Part shown: piece by piece, positions 2,145 through 52,033 of the stretch
How the letters are laid out: every line of letters begins with the position of its first letter
Position numbering within the stretch: the first letter of the stretch is position 1
From: Alphaproteobacteria bacterium
GTDB lineage: Bacteria > Pseudomonadota > Alphaproteobacteria > UBA7985
Direction: 5' to 3'
NCBI GenBank assembly: GCA_964228455.1
Contig: CAXQZM010000070.1
Coordinates: forward strand, 180-64,179
DNA: 64,000 nucleotides
The notes under the pieces: model-generated
The model's database searches: none
Told to the model about the DNA's origin: nothing
Seen by the model: only the letters and a program-made list of their open reading frames with translations
Translations under genes and position numbers: made by a program

Positions 2145-3098
2145 ATGAAACAGCTGCTCAAAACTGCTCAAGATGTCATTTTAGCTGAGCAAGAAGGCCT
2201 TGCAGAACTAGCCCGCAGTCTTGATGACACTTTCCTGAATGCACTTGAACTGTTGAGAGGGTGTGAAGGCAGAGTGATTTTCTCCGGCATGGGTAAATCA
2301 GGCCATATTGGATCAAAACTAGCTGCAACCATGGCGAGCACGGGCACCCCCGCTCTTTTTGTTCATCCAGGCGAAGCGAGCCATGGAGACATGGGTATGA
2401 TCAAACCAAGTGACGTCTTAATTCTTATGTCAAACTCGGGAAATACAGACGAATTAAAAGATCTCAGTGCCTATGGAAGACGTCAAAAGCTCTCGATAAT
2501 TGGGATTTCAAAAACTGATGACTCAATAGTGGGCCGAGCTTCAGACGTATTCATTCGGCTGCCACAGGTTGATGAGGCCTGCACTCTGCAGCTGGCTCCG
2601 ACCACCTCTACGACTATGATGCTAGCGTTAGGTGACGCTTTATGTGTTGCGCTAATGGAGATAAAAGGCTTCAAACCGTCTGATTTTCATCAATTTCATC
2701 CTGGTGGAAAACTAGGGCTAGATCTGATTCAAGTTCACGAGCTAATGCGACCATTAAGCAAGGTACCTACCTGCACGCTACCTTGCAGCATGGCAAAGGT
2801 TATCACTTCAATTAATCGAGGTGGTATCGGCCTTGTAGCACTCACAGAAAATGGTGTGTTAGCCGGGCTAATAACCGACGGTGATATTCGACGAAACTCG
2901 TCCCTGCGACTTATTGACCAAGACCCTTCTGATATAATGTCAGTTGATCCTCATGGGGTATTACCAACCGATCTTGCTTCCCACGCGTTGAAATTAATGA
3001 ATGATGAAGGAATTACCGCGTTGGTCGTGCGAGACAATCAAAGCGATTTAACGGGGTTACTTCATATCCACGATCTTCTAAGGGCAGGCTTAGGCTAG
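2145..3098 (+). CDS. kdsD: Arabinose-5-phosphate isomerase (KpsF/GutQ family, SIS + tandem CBS)
   Basis: SIS motif GRVIFSGMGKSGHIGSKLAATMASTGTPALFVHPGEASHGDMGMI. C-terminal CBS pair. Sits upstream of lptC-lptA-lptB as in the canonical kdsD-(kdsC)-lptCAB cluster. Confidence 0.85.
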   Translation: MKQLLKTAQDVILAEQEGLAELARSLDDTFLNALELLRGCEGRVIFSGMGKSGHIGSKLAATMASTGTPALFVHPGEASHGDMGMIKPSDVLILMSNSGNTDELKDLSAYGRRQKLSIIGISKTDDSIVGRASDVFIRLPQVDEACTLQLAPTTSTTMMLALGDALCVALMEIKGFKPSDFHQFHPGGKLGLDLIQVHELMRPLSKVPTCTLPCSMAKVITSINRGGIGLVALTENGVLAGLITDGDIRRNSSLRLIDQDPSDIMSVDPHGVLPTDLASHALKLMNDEGITALVVRDNQSDLTGLLHIHDLLRAGLG

Positions 3099-3101
3099 GT
3101 C

Positions 3102-3677
3102 ATGCACAATTATAAATCGGCACAAAAGCTGCATCGAAGCCAAAGTATATTTCTTTTTGCGTCAATGTCTTTGTTAACCGTGGCAATGCTATACTTAGCG
3201 CTTGTTAGGCCTTTTTCAGTTGGTTTCGACTTAAATTCAGTAGAGGAGGGTCGACGCTTGCAAGTTTTTGATGCTGCTGATGACTCCTACACGTCCCTAA
3301 ACAATCGGTTACTTGGACTTCGTGCCCAAGTATTATCTGGCGAGTTCAAAGGGACCGAGCTAACAGCCAATTCAATTAGTCAGCTTGATGGCATTGAGCA
3401 GCCATTTGTAATGGAATTAAATGCTAATGGCCCTGCAGGAGAAATACTCGCAGTTGGGCTCGCACGACCCGGCGAAAACCGTGAGGTTTATGAATTTCCT
3501 GCTGGCCTTACTGCAGATAATACAAGAGAACGCCTTGATTCTGAGAATTTAATGATCAATGTAGATGAGGGTACTGCGGAAGCACGAGGCAAGACCTACG
3601 TTGAGTCAGAGGATTCAATAATTAAAGCTGACGAAGGTCTTTTCATCGACAGGGAAGGCAACATTGAAATACGTTAA
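3102..3677 (+). CDS. lptC: LPS export protein LptC (putative)
   Basis: Single N-terminal TM segment, about 190 aa. Position between kdsD and lptA. Sequence alone is weakly diagnostic, so the call rests mainly on gene order. Confidence 0.5.
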   Translation: MHNYKSAQKLHRSQSIFLFASMSLLTVAMLYLALVRPFSVGFDLNSVEEGRRLQVFDAADDSYTSLNNRLLGLRAQVLSGEFKGTELTANSISQLDGIEQPFVMELNANGPAGEILAVGLARPGENREVYEFPAGLTADNTRERLDSENLMINVDEGTAEARGKTYVESEDSIIKADEGLFIDREGNIEIR

Positions 3678-4461
3678 ACTCTTATTACTCGCACTCTCTG
3701 CGAGTATTGCACCAAGCCACGCCCAAACTCCATCTATCAGCTTAAACTTGGAAGGAGAGCAGGGCGACATAAATGTGCAAGTTGGGGAAAGCCTTCAGCG
3801 AGACGTAGAAAAAGGGATAGTTCGTTTAACCGGCGGCATCCAAATTCGACAAGCCGATGGCGCAATAGTTCTGGCAGACAGTGCAGTTCTAATTAGTGAG
3901 CCCAACGCTATTTTTACAAGGGATGCAGAAGCCTTAGAGGGTGCCACTCTGATCGGCCGGGTTTATTTGCGAAACTCAGATGGTTTTGAGATAGAGGCAG
4001 AGACCCTTGAATTAAAAGATGAGCTCACCCGGTTCGAGGCACTTGGAGCACCAGTAGTTGTTAAAATTGATAGCCAAAGTCTTGAGGCCAACGAGGGGCT
4101 TCTTGGTAATTTAGACACTCGTACTTTTTATGGATACGGCGGCGCCACAATTAGTCTCAATGATGGCAAACTTGTAGGCAACGAAGTTCAAATCACCCTC
4201 CCCAAAAACCCTCAAGATCGCCCAAAAGTTCTTGCACGAGGGGACGTTTTGTTTGTCAATTTAACCGCTAGCGTAGCAGCTGATCAAATGGAAAGTAGCG
4301 ACGACGGTCGCTTTCTCACCTTGAGCGGTAATGTGGAAGTAACAAGTGGTAGCTCAAATTTTTCAAGCGGAAGTATTTTGATAGATCTCGAGACAGAGGC
4401 ATTTACGCTAGAGGCCGCAAATACTGAGCCTCAGGCGGCGCTAAACTTTTTAAAGCCATGA
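3664..4461 (+). CDS. lptA: LPS transport periplasmic protein LptA (OstA-like)
   Basis: Signal peptide MKYVKLLLLALSASIAPSHAQ. Beta-jellyroll-like repetitive segments. Lies immediately upstream of lptB and overlaps it. Confidence 0.65.
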   Translation: MKYVKLLLLALSASIAPSHAQTPSISLNLEGEQGDINVQVGESLQRDVEKGIVRLTGGIQIRQADGAIVLADSAVLISEPNAIFTRDAEALEGATLIGRVYLRNSDGFEIEAETLELKDELTRFEALGAPVVVKIDSQSLEANEGLLGNLDTRTFYGYGGATISLNDGKLVGNEVQITLPKNPQDRPKVLARGDVLFVNLTASVAADQMESSDDGRFLTLSGNVEVTSGSSNFSSGSILIDLETEAFTLEAANTEPQAALNFLKP

Positions 4462-5216
4462 TAGAAACTCCACTACGCAATGGATTAGTTGCCCAAGGTT
4501 TAAGGAAATCATATGGCCGTCGCGCTGTTTTATCAAAAGTTGATTTTGATGTGCAACGTGGCGAAGTCGTAGCTATTTTGGGACCTAATGGCGCGGGCAA
4601 AACCACAAGTTTCTATATGATGTGTGGGCTTACGAAAGCGGACTCGGGTCGCGTGATAATGGACGGAAAGGATATAACGAAATTACCCATGTATATCCGT
4701 GCGCGAATGGGAATTGGGTATTTGCCACAAGACTCAAGTATTTTTCGAGGCCTGAATGCGGAGCAGAATATTTCCTCAATTCTGCAGCTCGGAAACAAAA
4801 CAAAAAAAGAACAGCGAGAACGACTTGAGCAACTATTGGATGACTTTGGATTGCAACGAGTTCGCAAAGCACCTGCCCCTGCGCTGTCAGGCGGCGAGCG
4901 GCGGCGCGTCGAAGTAGCACGCGCTCTAGCATCGGATCCATCCTACATACTGCTTGATGAGCCGTTCGCAGGTGTCGACCCGATTGCAGTCGCAGATATT
5001 AGAGCTCTAGTTTCAAAACTAAAAACTTATGGGATCGGTGTTTTAATTACAGATCATAACGTTCGTGAAACGCTTGAAATTGTCGACCGCGCATTCATCA
5101 TCTACGATGGTACAATTCTGAAATCTGGATCAGCCAAGGAAATAATAGAAGACCCGGCGGTACAACAACACTATCTAGGAGACTCGATGAAGCGCTCCAG
5201 TCACCTTAATGACTAA
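4458..5216 (+). CDS. lptB: LPS export ABC transporter ATP-binding protein LptB
   Basis: Walker A GPNGAGKTT, ABC signature LSGGERRRVEVARAL, Walker B ILLDEP. 252 aa. Confidence 0.9.
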   Translation: MIETPLRNGLVAQGLRKSYGRRAVLSKVDFDVQRGEVVAILGPNGAGKTTSFYMMCGLTKADSGRVIMDGKDITKLPMYIRARMGIGYLPQDSSIFRGLNAEQNISSILQLGNKTKKEQRERLEQLLDDFGLQRVRKAPAPALSGGERRRVEVARALASDPSYILLDEPFAGVDPIAVADIRALVSKLKTYGIGVLITDHNVRETLEIVDRAFIIYDGTILKSGSAKEIIEDPAVQQHYLGDSMKRSSHLND

Positions 5217-5787
5217 ACTTTCAACTAGGAAAGCTCTCCTTGCACAGAGGAAGAAAGCGCACTCAGAGGAGTTGGAGGGAAACTTACCAGCCATGGCCAA
5301 GTGGCTGCTAGCGCAACTCGATACTAGCAAGATCTTGGCTAGCTACAAGCCTATTGGATCTGAGCGTGATCCAGGTCCTTTAACTAAACTTTTAAATATT
5401 CAATTAACGTTTCCTAAGGTTATGGGCTCAGCTCAGCCGCTGTCGTTTTTTTCAGCCTCCAAGGTTGATGATTTCGAACGAGGTGCTTTCGGCGTAATGG
5501 AGCCAAAAGACCTCCTAACCGAAATTCTGCCAGACATTGTCATCGCTCCTCTCGTTGGCTTCGATGAGAACGGATACCGAATGGGCTATGGTGGGGGGTT
5601 CTATGATCGCACTTTAGCTAAATTGCGAGCCGTTAAGAGTGTAACCGCAATCGGTTACGCCTATGAAAAACAGCTTAGCAAGAACCCTCTAAATTTTGAA
5701 CCCACGGACTTAGCTCTAGATTTTGTTATGACCCCTTCAAATCTTTATAAATTTAATAGCGGAAAAGATAAGTTCACATGGTCCTGA
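5209..5787 (+). CDS. 5-formyltetrahydrofolate cyclo-ligase
   Basis: Diagnostic GYGGGFYDRTL motif (GxGxGYYDR). About 190 aa. Confidence 0.8.
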   Translation: MTKLSTRKALLAQRKKAHSEELEGNLPAMAKWLLAQLDTSKILASYKPIGSERDPGPLTKLLNIQLTFPKVMGSAQPLSFFSASKVDDFERGAFGVMEPKDLLTEILPDIVIAPLVGFDENGYRMGYGGGFYDRTLAKLRAVKSVTAIGYAYEKQLSKNPLNFEPTDLALDFVMTPSNLYKFNSGKDKFTWS

Positions 5788-6593
5788 GAATAGGTGTCTT
5801 TGGTGATGTGGTGGGCCGAGCCGGGCGAAGTGCTGTGCTGAAACATATGCCGCTTGTTAAAGAAGCTCTCAAGCTGGACTTAGTGGTACTTAACATTGAA
5901 AATGCAGCTTCAGGCTTTGGTTACACACAAAAAATGGTCGAGGAATTTGAAGCAGCTGGGGTGGATGCAATGATTACTGGTAACCATGCTTTTGACCAGA
6001 AAGACGCAAATCAACTATTATCAACAAAACGTAGCCTAATCCGCCCAGCTAATTATCCTGAAGGAACACCTGGGATAGGATTATGCGAAGTTCAAACTCC
6101 CAAGGGCTCTATTGTAATTGCTCAGGTTATGGGGAGATTGTTCATGACACCTTTAGATTGTCCATTTAAAACGGTAGATAATCTTTTAAGGACCCACCGA
6201 TTAGGCGAAACATGCAAGGCGATTCTAGTCGATATTCATGGTGAAGCCACCTCAGAAAAAATGGCAATGGGACATTACCTTGATGGCCGGGTAACACTTG
6301 TTGAGGGCACCCACACCCATGTCCCGACAGCAGACACCATGATTTTACCGAAAGGAACTGCTTATCAGACCGATCTGGGTATGACAGGTGACTACCATTC
6401 TGTAATTGGTTTTGACCCACAGGTTCCAGTAAATCGGTTCAAGACGGGTCGAAGCGGAGGACGGCTAACACCGGCTTTAGGCGAGGCAACGCTAAGCGGA
6501 ATATACGTAGAAGCAGATTTAAACACCGGCTTAGCACAAAAAGCAAAACCAATTCGTACAGGCGGAAAATTAATTTCGACCTTATCCACATGA
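5778..6593 (+). CDS. YmdB-like metallophosphoesterase (TIGR00282 family)
   Basis: N-terminal RIGVFGDVVGRAGR and NIENAASGFG motifs typical of the YmdB calcineurin-like phosphoesterase family. Confidence 0.8.
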   Translation: MVLRIGVFGDVVGRAGRSAVLKHMPLVKEALKLDLVVLNIENAASGFGYTQKMVEEFEAAGVDAMITGNHAFDQKDANQLLSTKRSLIRPANYPEGTPGIGLCEVQTPKGSIVIAQVMGRLFMTPLDCPFKTVDNLLRTHRLGETCKAILVDIHGEATSEKMAMGHYLDGRVTLVEGTHTHVPTADTMILPKGTAYQTDLGMTGDYHSVIGFDPQVPVNRFKTGRSGGRLTPALGEATLSGIYVEADLNTGLAQKAKPIRTGGKLISTLST

Positions 6594-6770
6594 GCTAAGG
6601 TGAGTCCCCAAGCGGACTTTCGACTCTTGCGGGCAAAAGAATCCCCAGCTCAAACGACTCGAGTGCCGATTACAGACTTTCCCCGAGTCGCGAACCGTGA
6701 GAAAGGTGCCTTTCAAGAGGCCAAAACATCAGTGTAGCGGCGTTAGTTCTAATGATGAGAGGGACGTGTG
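6594..6770 (+). ncRNA. Candidate 6S RNA (ssrS-like), unverified
   Basis: About 175-nt non-coding gap on the same strand as the 5-FCL gene (in enterobacteria ssrS is linked to ygfA). By-eye partial resemblance to E. coli 6S motifs: CUUGCGGGC..UCCCCAGCUC versus E. coli GCAAGCGGGCCAGUCCCCUGAGCC, and GAGAAAGG..CCAAAAC..GUAGCGGCG versus GAGAAGCCUUAAAAC..CUGCGGCGGC. UCCCC/GGGA segments could close a central bubble. Not verified with a covariance model. Confidence 0.3.
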
Positions 6771-47011: not shown

Positions 47012-48304
47012 ATGGTGCTTACTCCCTCCTTAGGTCTTAAGCAGCGTCAACGTCTTGGTTTGACACAAGAAATAAAGTCGTCTCTTCAATACCTGGCACT
47101 GGCGGGGCTTCGATTAGAACAAGCCCTTACAGATGTTTTAGATTCTAACCCATTTCTGTCAGTTCGAAGCACGCACCCAATTCATAGCGAAGCTGATTGG
47201 TTGACAAATTTAGCTTCACCTGGACCTGAGTCTATCGCAACGGCTCTTCGCCTGTTGGCTACCGACTTATTTTGGACGCCAGAAGACAAATTTCTAAGCG
47301 ATATGCTCATTGATGAGGTCGGCGATAATGGCTTACTAGAGTTGCCCCTTGCTGACATTGCTGAAGATAATCGTATTGAGCTAGACCGGCTCAGACCGAT
47401 TCAGGACAAGTTTCTGGCTGAAGGCGGTTTGCTTGCTGACAATTTAGGCCATAGCCTAAGCGCACAAGCCGTTGCAAAGGTTCAAGTTGGTGACTGGCCA
47501 AACGAAGTTTTGGCTGAGGTACTAGAGGCATGTGACCTTTTAGACTTGATAGCATGCGGTGAGTTCACGCCAAATGCAAAAATTCTCGACCTAGTGCGAA
47601 CCCTTAACCCCCGGCCGGCCGATAATTTAGACTTAGAAGCTGCCGTAATTATACCGCCAGATCTCATTGTTGAAGAGTATGAAAATAACTGGCGCATAAG
47701 CCTAAATCCGCTGACGAATAGAGCCTACGAATTAGATGTTGATGCGCTAGGTGGTTTGAGTCCCAATGAGCAAAAGCAACCAAATATCGCTGAACCAATA
47801 AAAACTGCAAAAAGTACCGTAAGAGCACTGAAGGCACGTAAGCAAACTTTGGTTAATCTTGGTTATTTTCTGTGTAAAAAACAAGATGCTGCGCTTCGCC
47901 ACGGAAGAGCGCAACTGTCACCACTTACTCAAATGGACGCTGCAGAAGCGTTAGATTGTCATTCCTCCACTATATCGCGGGCTGTCGCAGGAAAAACGAT
48001 TCAAACCCCACAAGGGGTTTGGCCTTTAAGAGATTTTTTTTCTGCACTAATTGATCCCAACTCACTCTTATCAGGAGCCCAGCTGCGAGCGTGGCTTACA
48101 GAGACCATCTTTGAAGAAAATCGAACTGCTCCAATGTCGGATGCTGAGTTAGCAATTAAATTATCTGAACTTGGGCATGAGGTTGCTCGACGTACAATCA
48201 CAAAATACCGTCTTCATATAGGCTTGCCGGGTGCAGCGGCTCGGCGACGCCTATACTCTAGACGGTCACCAAATTTTAAAACATATAAGAAAGGGAAACT
48301 ATGA
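47012..48304 (+). CDS. rpoN: RNA polymerase sigma-54 factor
   Basis: N-terminal Gln/Leu-rich activator-interacting region (LKQRQRLGLTQEIKSSLQYLAL) and the C-terminal RpoN box ARRTITKYR. Followed by hpf. 430 aa, which is short for sigma-54. Confidence 0.85.
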   Translation: MVLTPSLGLKQRQRLGLTQEIKSSLQYLALAGLRLEQALTDVLDSNPFLSVRSTHPIHSEADWLTNLASPGPESIATALRLLATDLFWTPEDKFLSDMLIDEVGDNGLLELPLADIAEDNRIELDRLRPIQDKFLAEGGLLADNLGHSLSAQAVAKVQVGDWPNEVLAEVLEACDLLDLIACGEFTPNAKILDLVRTLNPRPADNLDLEAAVIIPPDLIVEEYENNWRISLNPLTNRAYELDVDALGGLSPNEQKQPNIAEPIKTAKSTVRALKARKQTLVNLGYFLCKKQDAALRHGRAQLSPLTQMDAAEALDCHSSTISRAVAGKTIQTPQGVWPLRDFFSALIDPNSLLSGAQLRAWLTETIFEENRTAPMSDAELAIKLSELGHEVARRTITKYRLHIGLPGAAARRRLYSRRSPNFKTYKKGKL

Positions 48305-48867
48305 AACTCACAATTGAAGGCCACCAAGTCCAAATGTCTCCCGTTCTCAATGAGAGAGTTGAAGCCTCTTTAGATGGTATTTTTGAAAAATATTTTGGGG
48401 ACGCTGTCTCAGCACAAGTCTTGTTCAGGCGCTCAGGGCATGGCTTCTCAGCACACCTGGAGACACATGTTGGAAAGCACATACATCTTGCCTCAGAGGG
48501 AAAAGCTGGTGATGCTTATAGCGCATTTGATTTAGCGGCTACTCGATTAGCGAAGCGACTCAGGCGGCACAAACGTAAATTACGAGATCATCATGCTGAT
48601 TTGGATGGTAGAAAAGTCCTCGAGGCTCGCGGTTTCGTTCTGGAGGCTGCGCCAGAAGAAGAACCAGAGGAAACCACGCCAGATGCGCCAACAGTTATTG
48701 CAGAAACCCCAACCCTAATTCCCACACTAAGTGTAGCGGAAGCTGTGATGCATCTTGATTTAAGTGATCAGCCAGCGCTCATGTTTCATAATGTTAACCA
48801 TGGTGGTTTGAATATGGTTTATGAAAGAACAGATGGCCACATATCCTGGGTAGATCCTCAAGAATAA
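48301..48867 (+). CDS. hpf: Ribosome hibernation promoting factor (long form)
   Basis: MKLTIEGHQVQMSPVLNERVEASL...FKRLRRHKRK matches the YfiA/HPF fold. Sits directly after rpoN. Confidence 0.85.
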   Translation: MKLTIEGHQVQMSPVLNERVEASLDGIFEKYFGDAVSAQVLFRRSGHGFSAHLETHVGKHIHLASEGKAGDAYSAFDLAATRLAKRLRRHKRKLRDHHADLDGRKVLEARGFVLEAAPEEEPEETTPDAPTVIAETPTLIPTLSVAEAVMHLDLSDQPALMFHNVNHGGLNMVYERTDGHISWVDPQE

Positions 48868-48950
48868 GTCAGTGCAGCAGTAGACTTGCCATAAAGTAGC
48901 CTCAGAGTTAGGGCTTAAACAGAATGAACATAGAGGGGAGCAGCACGCTC

Positions 48951-49724
48951 ATGCAGTTTAGTTTTCGAGCTTCAATGGCCTTAACTTTGATTTGCTGTGG
49001 AAATCTTGCAGTTGCACAGTCACAAGCACTCACGCCAGGTGCGGCGGCCATCGGCGGTACAACAACCAGTACTCAGTTAATTGGACCAGGAGGATCCTTG
49101 GTTCCGATTAGAGCCGCTCCCAATGCAGAGGACACTTCTCAGACCTCTACTCAAATAACCACAGGTGAAAGTAGCCTTCGCAGCTCCGATCAAAGTGAAC
49201 CAGTAGTGCTCCCAGCTGATCGGACTCAAGAAGCTACTGCTACTGAAACATCTGAACAAACGAGTGCACCAGAGAAAATTGAAGAGCCAAAAACTGTAGA
49301 AACAAGCATCCCTCAACCTCCTGAGAACGCCGAGACATCGCAAATTACGGCAGGCGCCACGCCAACGACCGCACCAGCAGCTGAAGATGATGAGGCAGGC
49401 GCGCTAAACCCTATTAATACTTTCGAACCAGCCCGCCTTGATTTTGGTAACGAGGGTATTGCATTAACAGCTCAACACGAAATTGCTCTTGACCCAATTG
49501 CAGCTCTTATGAGAGCAAATCCACTTATGCCGCTCCAAATCATTGCGGTGCTGCCACTCTCCGAAGCAACAAGCGACGAGGCAAAACAGAAAGCACGGAG
49601 AAGAATACTTGCTGTTCGAAGCAATCTAATTTCACGTGGGCTTAGCGCAGATAATCTGACATTTGTAATATCCGCCAATACAGAGTCGGAGCCTTTTGCT
49701 AACTTTATCCTTATTGAACGCTAA
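48951..49724 (+). CDS. Secreted protein with Ser/Thr/Glu/Pro-rich linker and degenerate OmpA-like C-terminal domain
   Basis: Signal peptide MQFSFRASMALTLICCGNLAVA-QS, then about 110 aa of low-complexity T/S/E/P-rich sequence. The C-terminal 100 aa (ARLDFGNEGIALT...ILAVRSNLISRGLSADNLTF) follows the OmpA C-domain spacing but lacks the GHTD core motif. Start set at the ATG 48951, preceded by GAGGGGAG. The stop overlaps the next gene (TAATG). Confidence 0.55.
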   Translation: MQFSFRASMALTLICCGNLAVAQSQALTPGAAAIGGTTTSTQLIGPGGSLVPIRAAPNAEDTSQTSTQITTGESSLRSSDQSEPVVLPADRTQEATATETSEQTSAPEKIEEPKTVETSIPQPPENAETSQITAGATPTTAPAAEDDEAGALNPINTFEPARLDFGNEGIALTAQHEIALDPIAALMRANPLMPLQIIAVLPLSEATSDEAKQKARRRILAVRSNLISRGLSADNLTFVISANTESEPFANFILIER

Positions 49725-50836
49725 TGATCATACTTGCCCGCCCACTCATTTTAATATTCATCGCACTAGCTGCGCTTTTAACGATTTTAAGTCTTCAGTT
49801 CGGTCCAATTAGCGCATTTTTCGCAGAAAATTTGGTGATAAATAGCCTGATTTTAGGCGTTTTCATAATTGGGCTATTTTTATCATTCTGGCGGCTTTCA
49901 GCTCTTGCATTCGAAATTACTTGGATCGATCGGATTAGAAATGCCACACAAGCCAGCGATGCAGATGAATTAGCTGGCCCTAGGGTAGTTGCGCGCCTGC
50001 ATATGCTTGCGGCATTTGCAAATGTCTGGCGCCGATTTTTTGATTCCAGTCAAGCTCTAACCCCCGATCTCGCAACAACTTTAGTTGACTCGGCCCAAAA
50101 TCGACTTGATGAGCGAAGAGAGCTCTCTCGCTACCTTGCTAATGCCTTGCTAATTCTAGGTTTGCTAGGAACTTTCTGGGGTCTTCTTGGTGCATTAATT
50201 GGAATGCGTGAGGCACTTGGAAATCTCGATGCTCAACAAGATTTCTTTACGGGTCTATCTAGCTCGCTGTCAGCGCCTTTAGAAAGCATGGGCACTGCGT
50301 TTTCATCTACCTTATTTGGTCTGGCTGCTTCGCTTTTGTTTGGGTTCATTGAACTTCAGACCACTCGCGCGCATTCTGCATTTTTGGAAAATTTTGAAGC
50401 CTGGCTTGCTACTTTTATGCAGACAACAGAACTTGCTTCAGATGACAACAAACATCCGATGTCAGCAAAACCGCGTCCATCGATAGAGCCAAATGCAAAT
50501 ATAGAGACGCTTGGTCACCTAATGCGGCGGGGTCAGCAAGATACTATGGTCTTGAACAATAACCTCGTGAGTCTTTTAGATCAGATAACTCGCGTTGCTG
50601 ATAAAGTAGAAGCAAACCACCTAGTTCACGAAAAGATACTCTCATCTCAGATGACTAATGAGCAGCTTATTGATAAAATTGAGGTTTTAGTGGATACTTT
50701 GACAATAGAAAAACAAACAGATTCTTTATCGGGCATTGATAATAGGATTGTAGCAACTGCAGAAAGCATAGAGCCAAACGATTACAAAGATCCCGCAGAT
50801 GATGCTGCCGCGGACTCGAGTAAAGACGAAAGTTAG
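49724..50836 (+). CDS. MotA/TolQ/ExbB-family proton-channel protein with C-terminal hydrophilic tail
   Basis: Four TM segments. TM3 contains LGLLGTFWGLLGALIGM, the MotA_ExbB signature. A C-terminal stretch of about 140 aa is polar and coiled-coil-like. Confidence 0.7.
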   Translation: MIILARPLILIFIALAALLTILSLQFGPISAFFAENLVINSLILGVFIIGLFLSFWRLSALAFEITWIDRIRNATQASDADELAGPRVVARLHMLAAFANVWRRFFDSSQALTPDLATTLVDSAQNRLDERRELSRYLANALLILGLLGTFWGLLGALIGMREALGNLDAQQDFFTGLSSSLSAPLESMGTAFSSTLFGLAASLLFGFIELQTTRAHSAFLENFEAWLATFMQTTELASDDNKHPMSAKPRPSIEPNANIETLGHLMRRGQQDTMVLNNNLVSLLDQITRVADKVEANHLVHEKILSSQMTNEQLIDKIEVLVDTLTIEKQTDSLSGIDNRIVATAESIEPNDYKDPADDAAADSSKDES

Positions 50837-50842
50837 GCTACC

Positions 50843-52033
50843 GTGGCGCGGAGACGCAGCATCAATGGGGAGCTTAATGTTTGGCCTGCTTTTGTGGATG
50901 TCCTCGCGACACTACTTCTCGTCATTATTCTATTGGTGCTAGCAGTTACGCTTACTCAATTTTATACAGCAAATCGGGCTTCCGGATTAGAGCGTATAGG
51001 AGATCAACTCAGCGATCAGCTAGAGCAGCGAGTAAGACAATTAACCGCATTACAACAGGAACGTGAGAGCCTAATTCGAGAAGGGGATGACCTTAGAAGT
51101 AATGTGGGTGAGTTAACTTATCAGGTGAACACACAGTCAAATGAAATAGACGAACTCCAGATTCTACGCGATCAATTATTTGCCCAAATTGCTCTTCAAG
51201 CTGATGAACTTAACGTTCTGAAGAGTGAGCAAATAGAGTTGACCAATAATAGCGAAGCAGCTGAGAAAGCGGTGGAAGATCTTCTGCTTAAACTTGCTGA
51301 AATAGAAGGCGGGGATGTTGATCTTGAAGGCGGCTTGCTAACTGTATTAGGACAAATGGACGATAAACTAGAACGACTGCTTAACGTTCTTTCGAATGCA
51401 GAGAGGGAACGCAAAAATGCGGAAAATCAGCGCGCAGCCGCAGAAAATGAACTTGCAGAACTTGATGCCAATAACTTTATCCTTCTTGCCGAAAATGAGG
51501 GCTTAAGAGCTAATTTAGAAACGCTAAGCTTAAGCGAGAGGCTTAACGACTCATTGCTTATAGAAGCGGAGGAACTTGGTCGCCAGCGCTCCGCTTTCTT
51601 CGCTAATTTGATTGAAGTATTAGGGGAGCGTGATGATGTCTCAGTTGTTGGTGATCGATTTGTCTTCCAATCCGAGGTTTTGTTTGATTCTGGCTCTGCC
51701 AGGCTAGGAATTAGTGGTGAAGCACAACTTACACGCCTTGCTGAAACGATAATGTCTTTAGCCTCAGACTTCCCATCTGACTGGATTTTAAGAGTTGATG
51801 GCCATACCGATGCAAGACCCATTTCGCCTAGTTCTAGAAGCCGTTATCAGAATAACTGGCAGCTTAGTTCAGAGCGGGCTCGTTCTGTTGTAGAGTCACT
51901 AATTGCACAAGGGGTGCCACCAAACCGGCTTGTTGCAGCTGGCTTTGGAGAGCACCAACCCCTAATCGATGAAGACACCCCAGAAGCTTTAGCTAAAAAT
52001 CGTCGTATTGAGCTCAAACTAACAACGCGATGA
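50843..52033 (+). CDS. MotB-like protein with long coiled-coil linker and C-terminal OmpA peptidoglycan-binding domain
   Basis: N-terminal TM with MotB/TolR-type Asp (WPAFVDVLATLLLVIILL). About 230 aa of heptad-like Leu/Glu/Gln-rich sequence. OmpA domain with FQSEVLFDSGSARL...RVDGHTDARP...NWQLSSERARSV...NRRIEL. Confidence 0.7.
   Translation: MARRRSINGELNVWPAFVDVLATLLLVIILLVLAVTLTQFYTANRASGLERIGDQLSDQLEQRVRQLTALQQERESLIREGDDLRSNVGELTYQVNTQSNEIDELQILRDQLFAQIALQADELNVLKSEQIELTNNSEAAEKAVEDLLLKLAEIEGGDVDLEGGLLTVLGQMDDKLERLLNVLSNAERERKNAENQRAAAENELAELDANNFILLAENEGLRANLETLSLSERLNDSLLIEAEELGRQRSAFFANLIEVLGERDDVSVVGDRFVFQSEVLFDSGSARLGISGEAQLTRLAETIMSLASDFPSDWILRVDGHTDARPISPSSRSRYQNNWQLSSERARSVVESLIAQGVPPNRLVAAGFGEHQPLIDEDTPEALAKNRRIELKLTTR

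Follow-up and report, generated by a model that had tools for sequence, protein, structure and literature searches.

We analyzed a MotB-like gene in a 64,000-nucleotide stretch of DNA (the window) from an alphaproteobacterium of the UBA7985 lineage (contig CAXQZM010000070.1 of assembly GCA_964228455.1). The encoded protein, which we call B, carries a long coiled coil between its membrane helix and its peptidoglycan-binding domain. Such a coiled coil characterizes a large and conserved family of non-flagellar, MotAB/TolQR-like proton-channel pairs that has hardly been studied, and the window gene is an ordinary, somewhat divergent member of that family. B is encoded beside a channel-type partner (A) and a secreted accessory protein (X). 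Our data show the domain architecture, heptads, predicted folds, gene pairing, and distribution described below, as well as the membership of a published Komagataeibacter 'MotAB' pair in the family. B is probably the wall-anchored subunit (both axle and anchor) of a complex that belongs to the MotAB/TolQR/ExbBD/ZorAB superfamily, is non-flagellar and ion-driven, and is made with A and, in this lineage, X. The physiological role of this complex is probably related to the envelope, the cell pole, or division. The three genes are located in the window as follows:

50843–52033, forward strand: gene for the B subunit, a MotB-like protein (GTG start, stop codon at 52031–52033, 396 amino acids)
49724–50836, forward strand: gene for the A subunit, a MotA/TolQ/ExbB/ZorA-like channel protein (open reading frame, 370 amino acids)
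48924–49724, forward strand: accessory gene X, secreted, with a weak OmpA-like C-terminus (open reading frame, 266 amino acids)

Domain architecture of the B protein

Hydropathy analysis of B revealed a basic N-terminus and a single hydrophobic helix at residues ~14–42. We combined hydropathy, heptad analysis, invariant alignment columns, and an AlphaFold2 model to divide the gene into these features:

50882–50968, forward strand: transmembrane helix, residues 14–42, with the motif W14-P15-x-x-V18-D19 (hydropathy; invariant columns)
50897–50899, forward strand: codon for Asp19
50969–51304, forward strand: periplasmic coiled-coil segment 1, residues 43–154 (single heptad register; AlphaFold2 helix 14–154)
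51305–51334, forward strand: Gly-rich hinge EGGDVDLEGG, residues 155–164 (AlphaFold2 loop with a predicted local distance difference test score (pLDDT) below 50; heptad register shift)
51335–51556, forward strand: periplasmic coiled-coil segment 2, residues 165–238 (second heptad register; AlphaFold2 helix 165–260)
51557–52030, forward strand: MotB/PomB-type peptidoglycan-binding domain, residues 239–396, including an N-terminal helix and the RYRSEFF / GDRFVFQSE lead-in

The composition and periodicity of the stalk are those of a coiled coil. Residues 45–275 contain no Pro, are 18% Leu and 14% Glu, and are also rich in Ala, Arg, Asp, Asn, and Gln. The best-register a/d heptad score for this region was 0.531, compared to 0.368 ± 0.032 for shuffled sequences (z = 5.1), and none of 500 shuffles reached 0.531. 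One heptad register runs from ~43 to ~160 and another from ~165 to ~220. When these registers were applied explicitly, hydrophobic residues occupied 88% of d positions (16 of 25 being Leu), 56% of a positions, and 20–35% of the b, c, e, f, and g positions. Asn is occasionally found at position a, as in dimeric leucine zippers, which suggests that the stalk may be dimeric. Profile searches with B returned weak matches to coiled-coil proteins (JetC/MukB-like), and homologs of B matched crescentin-rod, intermediate-filament, and HOOK profiles.

The AlphaFold2 model of B was computed as a monomer from a 68-sequence alignment (mean pLDDT 84, predicted template modeling score (pTM) 0.46). It consists of a helix at residues 14–154, a loop at 155–164, a second helix at 165–260, and then the OmpA fold, with the transmembrane helix running unbroken into coil segment 1. 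The original prediction had placed the coil at roughly residues 45–275. A heptad coil is indeed present in this region, but it is broken at residues 155–164, and residues 239–260 are part of the peptidoglycan-binding domain.

The Pfam OmpA model matches B residues 280–387 (E = 8e-17), and residues 3–101 match the ZorB1 profile (E = 1.8e-7). Invariant positions among the 68 aligned sequences fall into three clusters: W14/P15/V18/D19 in the membrane helix, R249, S250, F252, and F253 together with GDRFVFQSE ahead of the globular domain, and the OmpA motifs DGHTD and NRRIE. Judging from its position and from established knowledge of these proteins, we take Asp19 to be equivalent to MotB D32, TolR D23, and ExbD D25. 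The N-terminus of B (MARRR...NVWPAFVD) agrees with those of its homologs, and we therefore rejected an annotation or start-codon artifact.

B belongs to a large family with stalks of variable length

The best curated match of B is NCBIfam NF006543 (PRK09039 group, 'peptidoglycan -binding protein'; E = 3.2e-79, 267.3 bits), with B residues 91–396 aligned to positions 45–350 of the 350-position profile. Four sister models rank after it (group NF006542–NF006546). B also has the architecture of the PRK09039 group, namely a WP..VD transmembrane helix, a long heptad stalk, and a C-terminal MotB-type OmpA domain. By sequence, B is clearly homologous to this group, yet it represents a divergent clade. 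A search of 5.8 billion proteins identified at least 7,990 relatives of B, labeled 'peptidoglycan -binding protein', 'chemotaxis protein MotB', or 'OmpA/MotB domain protein'. Their sources include Thalassospira, Roseibium, Cohaesibacter, Caenispirillum, and Rhodovibrio, and none of the homologs is an established flagellar stator. The closest database proteins come from metagenome-assembled genomes (MAGs) of uncultured Alphaproteobacteria.

The stalk had been called unusually long, and this holds in comparison to the characterized MotB, PomB, ZorB, and TolR proteins. The OmpA core of B starts at residues 275–281, whereas it starts at 132–138 in MotB from Campylobacter jejuni and Bacillus subtilis and at 196 in PomB. 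The stalk is not peculiar to this gene, being a trait of a family with thousands of proteins. Among the top 120 homologs, ~160–370 residues separate the membrane helix from the OmpA core, and the length distribution has modes near 175 and 225. The corresponding segment in B is 234 residues long, which is 55 residues longer than in its closest relatives (~58% identity). We considered internal duplication as the source of the longer stalk and rejected it because the stalk contains no tandem repeat and its coil segments show no relationship to each other. Several family members maintain a single heptad register over 200–270 residues that are nearly devoid of Gly and lack Pro; in one of these (P0119), 82% of a positions are hydrophobic across 270 residues. 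The hinge EGGDVDLEGG is present in the closest relatives of B (P0002 and P0004), absent from P0119, P0094, and others, and thus confined to the clade of the window gene.

A fully extended stalk would measure ~28 nm in B (at 0.148 nm per residue) and ~40 nm in P0119. The gap between the inner membrane and the wall, and even the width of the periplasm, is usually below these lengths. A stalk of this length can only fit if it tilts, bends at the hinge, folds back, or lies along the wall. The proposal that the coil serves as a length-defining spacer is disfavored by these dimensions and by the variation in stalk length even between close relatives, in which the 55-residue difference noted above corresponds to ~8 nm.

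Full-text literature searches turned up no publication in which the coiled-coil B subunit or the PRK09039 family is itself described. The matches they returned for PRK09039 and for Dinoroseobacter 'OmpA/MotB domain' lipoproteins were irrelevant and were set aside. A 2025 mBio survey of MotAB relatives splits flagellar from generic transporters and leaves the stalked architecture unmentioned, while noting that non-flagellar relatives have large periplasmic extensions (PMC12505986).

The A subunit resembles TolQ, ExbB, and ZorA

Profile searches placed A in the MotA/ExbB superfamily at low scores. Pfam PF01618 (MotA_ExbB) matches A weakly (E = 1.7e-7), and the NCBIfam MotA model gave E = 0.098. 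The best NCBIfam and PADLOC matches are ZorA models that score far under threshold: antiphage_ZorA_4 reached 26 bits against a cut-off of 500, and PADLOC ZorA1 matched only ~100 residues (E = 1.5e-9). When the profile of the A family was compared to PDB sequences, it matched only coiled-coil proteins (apolipoprotein A-IV, Rad50, and tropomyosin), and did so via the tail described below.

Structural comparison was more informative. The AlphaFold2 model of A (pLDDT 81) was searched with Foldseek, and the best matches were TolQ, ExbB, and ZorA chains with template modeling scores (TM-scores) of ~0.6 per target (0.60 for TolQ chain 9kq0_A and 0.53–0.57 for ExbB 5sv0). Flagellar MotA and PomA did not appear among the top 50 matches, all of which were TolQ, ExbB, or ZorA. 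Hydropathy analysis identified hydrophobic helices at residues 1–65 (two helices), 137–161, and 191–211, and the combination of hydropathy and charge indicated a basic cytoplasmic loop at 66–136 and a cytoplasmic tail at 212–370. The invariant motifs of the A family, GLLGTFWG and PL..MGTAFSS (which includes Thr150), lie in helices that appear to resemble the TolQ/ExbB signature. Part of the tail is predicted to be helical:

50492–50713, forward strand: cytoplasmic helical tail of A, residues 257–330 (AlphaFold2 helix with pLDDT 70–80, followed by an acidic disordered C-terminus)

The heptad a/d hydrophobic value of this tail is 0.67 versus 0.30. The C-terminus of A (window 50713–50836) is acidic, is predicted to be disordered, and ends in ...NDYKDPADDAAADSSKDES. 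Most homologous A proteins end in a conserved RSEIxLLARTIAA motif, and the clade of the window gene is without it. The A family comprises 1,023 representatives (clusters at 50% identity) at E ≤ 1e-30.

Gene pairing, synteny, and the accessory gene X

The genes for A and B form a stable pair. Of the 19 loci in which B was matched over its full length (L001–L019), 17 have A next to B, and in the other two (L005 and L019) the contig ends upstream of B. The same pairing occurs in five further loci (L022, L024–L026, and L031). Loci with the pair come from Alpha-, Beta-, and Gammaproteobacteria and from Nitrospiraceae, and include MAGs of Burkholderiales, Acidiferrobacterales, and 'Muproteobacteria'. 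In three Burkholderiales MAGs (L004:1263-4759, L010:1399-4781, and L014:1422-4769), the A and B genes lie directly downstream of a major facilitator superfamily permease. This permease has an Acatn-type N-terminus and looks AmpG-like by eye, and it is preceded by metX and metW look-alikes. It could be functionally linked to the pair, via muropeptide recycling, or be no more than a syntenic neighbor.

The order efp-suhB-[X]-A-B is found in Thalassospira, Roseibium, Caenispirillum, Cohaesibacter, and the Komagataeibacter-like contig L031, and rpmE lies downstream of the module in Caenispirillum and Cohaesibacter. The common efp-suhB site across these genera argues that the module has been inherited vertically as a core gene set. 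In the clade of the window gene (including L001 and L002), the module lies beside rpoN-hpf instead, in the order rpoN-hpf-X-A-B. We found no flagellar neighbors in the window or in the related loci examined.

In the window, the stop codon of X overlaps the start codon of A by 1 nucleotide and a 6-nucleotide gap separates the end of A from the start of B, so the three genes look like a single operon. Pfam searches identified rpoN and hpf upstream of X, and translations judged by eye suggest recR and ybaB look-alikes downstream on the opposite strand. No flagellar or defense genes were recognizable by eye across the 64-kb window. Scans for promoters and terminators at the locus gave results at or below the shuffle expectation. 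We rejected horizontal transfer of the locus because base composition is uniform along the window. In proteobacteria, rpoN-hpf usually come after lptB. Here, look-alikes of kdsD, lptC, lptA, and lptB (assigned by eye from N-terminal sequences) are found at window positions 2145–5216, and rpoN-hpf (47012–48867) lie 42 kb from the lptB look-alike, directly upstream of X-A-B.

The X protein consists of a signal peptide with an N-terminal hydrophobic stretch at residues 16–32, a disordered linker rich in Thr, Ala, Glu, and Pro, and an OmpA-like end. The Pfam OmpA model matches X residues 174–253 with E = 0.006, which is below the cut-off. Only 13 homologs of X were detected by sequence, several of them with a Pfam OmpA match. 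Genes at the X position are present in the clade of the window gene, Thalassospira, Caenispirillum, and Komagataeibacter; X is absent at the Roseibium, Cohaesibacter, and beta- and gammaproteobacterial loci. X is 28.7% identical over 87 amino acids (E = 1e-5) to the OmpA-domain gene product at the same position in Thalassospira (L022:3582-4799). The X-position gene of L031, which lies on the minus strand at 5764–6597 in reverse-complement numbering, was compared with the Thalassospira gene only and showed 37% identity over 103 amino acids. An OmpA-like end was detected for all X-position genes except that of Caenispirillum (351 amino acids, no Pfam match on record). X evolves very fast yet keeps its layout throughout, including a long linker and a short conserved N-terminal motif (QxLTPGAAAIGG in the clade of the window gene).

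A published pair from Komagataeibacter hansenii belongs to the family

Literature searches identified experiments on only one member of the family. Jacek et al. (2019) studied 'motA' (348 amino acids) and 'motB' (321 amino acids) in the flagellum-less bacterium Komagataeibacter hansenii, using cloning primers that encode MotA VTRPTTY...NHSAS* and MotB MARRSR...EFRLTDR* (PMC6570709). We scanned metagenome contigs for the motB primer and recovered L031. This contig carries efp-suhB-X-A-B with an A protein of 348 amino acids (MTRPTTY...NHSAS) and a B protein of 320 amino acids (MARRSRR...EFRLTDR). Its proteins are 30% (A) and 35–42% (B) identical to those of the window and 45–52% identical to those of Thalassospira. 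On the strength of the matching termini and these identities, we assign the published K. hansenii MotA/MotB pair to the stalked family.

The phenotypes reported for this pair point toward the cell envelope. C-terminal green fluorescent protein fusions localized to the pole, and to both poles in long cells; upon overexpression, cells were elongated or chained, colonies spread more, and the cellulose was looser (PMC6570709). Disruptants were viable with denser cellulose (review PMC7347698). The authors took the pair to be motility genes and stated that the partner receiving the energy was unknown (PMC6570709).

A model for the stalked complex

By analogy with characterized members of the superfamily, we infer how stoichiometry, proton conduction, dimerization, wall binding, and output may be combined in this complex. 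We would expect an A ring that encloses a pair of B chains (5:2 stoichiometry), with the proton path provided by Asp19 of B together with the conserved helices of A that contain Thr. The B helices would leave the membrane straight into a leucine zipper-type coil of ~200 residues, most simply a parallel dimer, that is broken once by the glycine hinge in the clade of the window gene and ends in the peptidoglycan-binding domain. Such a stalk would tether the motor to the wall at a distance and with some reach, and would not act as a fixed ruler. The A ring, with its helical tail in the cytoplasm, would most likely deliver the mechanical or signaling output, as in ZorA. The stalk itself might instead be the moving element, as in TolA or GldM, and the data favor neither of these outputs.

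We also formulated a bolder version of this model, which we regard as very unlikely. It proposes a wall-tethered rotary proton motor with a housekeeping function that senses or actuates envelope mechanics at the poles or septa of Alphaproteobacteria and other diderms. The coil would be a tension-bearing tether that gates the channel upon movement of the inner membrane relative to the wall, the rotating A ring and its cytoplasmic tail would relay the signal inward, and the system would be a core-genome counterpart, and possibly an evolutionary relative, of the Zorya sensor principle.

Several points weigh against a wall-anchored, ion-driven complex. The complex itself, its stoichiometry, ion flux, and peptidoglycan binding are predictions for all members of the family. 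The AlphaFold2 monomer (pTM 0.46) cannot tell an extended parallel dimer from a fold-back hairpin. Because the stalks, if fully extended, exceed the usual distance between the inner membrane and the wall, the geometry of wall anchoring is unexplained. The NF006543 score of B (267 bits) is below the curated cut-off of 305. Finally, the Komagataeibacter phenotypes are indirect evidence and were mostly produced by overexpression.

Comparison with characterized systems and alternative explanations

The closest likeness is to the PRK09039 family and the K. hansenii 'MotB', which share with B the same architecture, a C-terminus of the form ...RRIE(L/F)(K/R)LTxR, and the same partner gene. B is ~40% identical to the Thalassospira and Roseibium proteins and falls within the range given above for the Komagataeibacter-like protein. 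The window locus differs by its longer, hinged stalk, by its move from efp-suhB to rpoN-hpf, and by an A protein that lacks the conserved C-terminal motif.

Other explanations borrow from better-known relatives. B could be a specialized flagellar stator paralog, with a stalk long enough for MotB to get past a wide motor to the wall. The conserved transmembrane Asp of MotB and PomB is proton-binding, and B shares with these proteins a transmembrane helix with such an Asp (D19, invariant in 68 sequences) and a MotB-type OmpA-like peptidoglycan-binding domain. Database names ('MotB', 'flagellar motor protein MotA') also favor a stator, as do a C-terminal domain that is closest to PomB, MotS, and MotB and an A protein that, like MotA, is predicted to have four transmembrane helices (PMC6570709; hydropathy). 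The explanation is nevertheless largely refuted, and we consider it extremely unlikely. The fold of A is nearer to TolQ, ExbB, and ZorA than to a flagellar-type MotA with its FliG-facing domain, MotA and PomA are missing from its top 50 structural matches, and its score against the NCBIfam MotA model is poor. In place of a plug or a flexible Pro/Gly linker, B has a rigid coiled coil of ~200 amino acids, and Pfam MotB_plug did not match it at E ≤ 0.1. The plug and linker of E. coli MotB, by comparison, comprise 52 amino acids with 5 Pro and 6 Gly (sequence quoted in PMC12505986). The genomic context is non-flagellar in the window and the related loci, and the family is conserved in Komagataeibacter, a genus without flagella. 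We give equally little credence to a Zorya-like anti-phage system that would sense envelope perturbation in the manner of ZorAB and signal via the A tail. Both systems combine a TolQ/ExbB-like A protein bearing a helical cytoplasmic tail with a B protein bearing a peptidoglycan-binding domain. ZorA models are the best PADLOC and NCBIfam matches of A, B matches ZorB1 and ZorB3 (PADLOC ZorB3, E = 1.5e-24, OmpA region only), and ZorA and ZorB are among the structural matches. These profile matches are weak, with that of A far under its cut-off (26 versus 500 bits), and the A tail of ~75–150 amino acids is several-fold shorter than in ZorA, whose profiles span roughly 500–1,000 positions. The genes adjacent to the pair are rpoN, hpf, X, and the recR and ybaB look-alikes in the window and efp, suhB, and rpmE elsewhere, with no effector genes resembling ZorC/ZorD, ZorE, or ZorF/ZorG among them. 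Synteny with efp, suhB, and rpmE across orders and the housekeeping neighbors point to vertically inherited core genes rather than a defense island. The original prediction had contrasted B with Zorya, in which the long tail is on the MotA-like subunit. The long helix here is mainly on the periplasmic B protein, but the contrast is incomplete because A also has a cytoplasmic helical tail (residues 257–330).

The remaining alternatives keep a non-flagellar envelope complex and assign the coil a different part, and both are unlikely. The less improbable of them is a Tol/Ton-like force transducer. The coil would be the moving output, in the role of TolA domain II or GldM, and the head, rather than being a static anchor, would grip the wall reversibly, depending on proton motive force, to pull or position envelope layers, such as at poles or septa. 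The predicted fold of A is of the TolQ/ExbB type, with TolQ and ExbB as its best structural matches, and the continuity of the membrane helix with the coil would allow torque or pull to be transmitted. The polar localization and the chaining upon overexpression in K. hansenii suggest a link to the envelope and division, as in Tol-Pal, and several lineages have a gene for a secreted OmpA-like partner. The long periplasmic helical element recalls TolA domain II; in B, however, the rod is fused to the subunit itself and is not carried by a TolA/TonB protein, and the periplasmic domain is of the OmpA/MotB type, not the TolR/ExbD fold. All anchor motifs are invariant in the head, an anchor domain of the MotB/PomB type, the very variable stalk length is ill-suited to a defined target, and neither a conserved TolA/TonB-like or outer-membrane partner nor TolB/Pal-like genes were found adjacent to the pair. 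In GldLM/PorLM, the GldM dimer likewise reaches a long way across the periplasm, starting at its transmembrane helix, but it does so with globular domains that contact outer-membrane components, where B has a coiled coil and a wall-binding domain; we found no sequence or fold match to GldLM/PorLM. Somewhat less probable still is an antiparallel hairpin, in which the coil segments fold back (as a four-helix bundle in the dimer) and hold the head near the membrane until an activating signal arrives. This arrangement is consistent with the glycine hinge near the middle of the stalk in the clade of the window gene, with peaks of conservation at both stalk ends, which would be neighbors after folding back, and with pLDDT values of 73–90, which are fairly high for otherwise isolated helices.

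Two loci from Sphingomonadales, L020 (L020:3667-10577, a Novosphingobium MAG) and L021, were pulled into our searches by the shared NVWPAFVD membrane motif and have a different arrangement. Based on neighbors identified by eye, L020 encodes in order a type I secretion ATP-binding cassette transporter (760 amino acids), a short B-like protein (235 amino acids) that apparently lacks an OmpA domain, a long-tailed A-like protein (530 amino acids), a 117-amino acid open reading frame, and a TolC-like protein (619 amino acids). These loci are reminiscent of Salmonella SiiAB and look like a SiiAB-type proton channel associated with secretion.

Implications

Bacteria are known to use one ion-driven motor design in MotAB, TolQR, ExbBD, ZorAB, and GldLM. 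Relative to these characterized systems, the family described here is a distinct variant with a rigid B stalk, a TolQ/ZorA-like A protein with a short tail, and a housekeeping context. Three elements come together in it: a MotB-type wall anchor, a ring like those of TolQ, ExbB, and ZorA that bears a cytoplasmic tail, and, between the two, a rigid coiled-coil stalk 20–40 nm long. We did not encounter this combination in the characterized systems we compared, the solved structures we searched, or our literature searches. The window gene is not a local oddity; it belongs to a family that databases already recognize and that is large (~1,000 A clusters at 50% identity and thousands of B proteins) and conserved beside efp-suhB in Alphaproteobacteria. 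Studying this family could show how a stiff stalk affects gating and anchoring, and could reveal a further cellular job for motors of this design.

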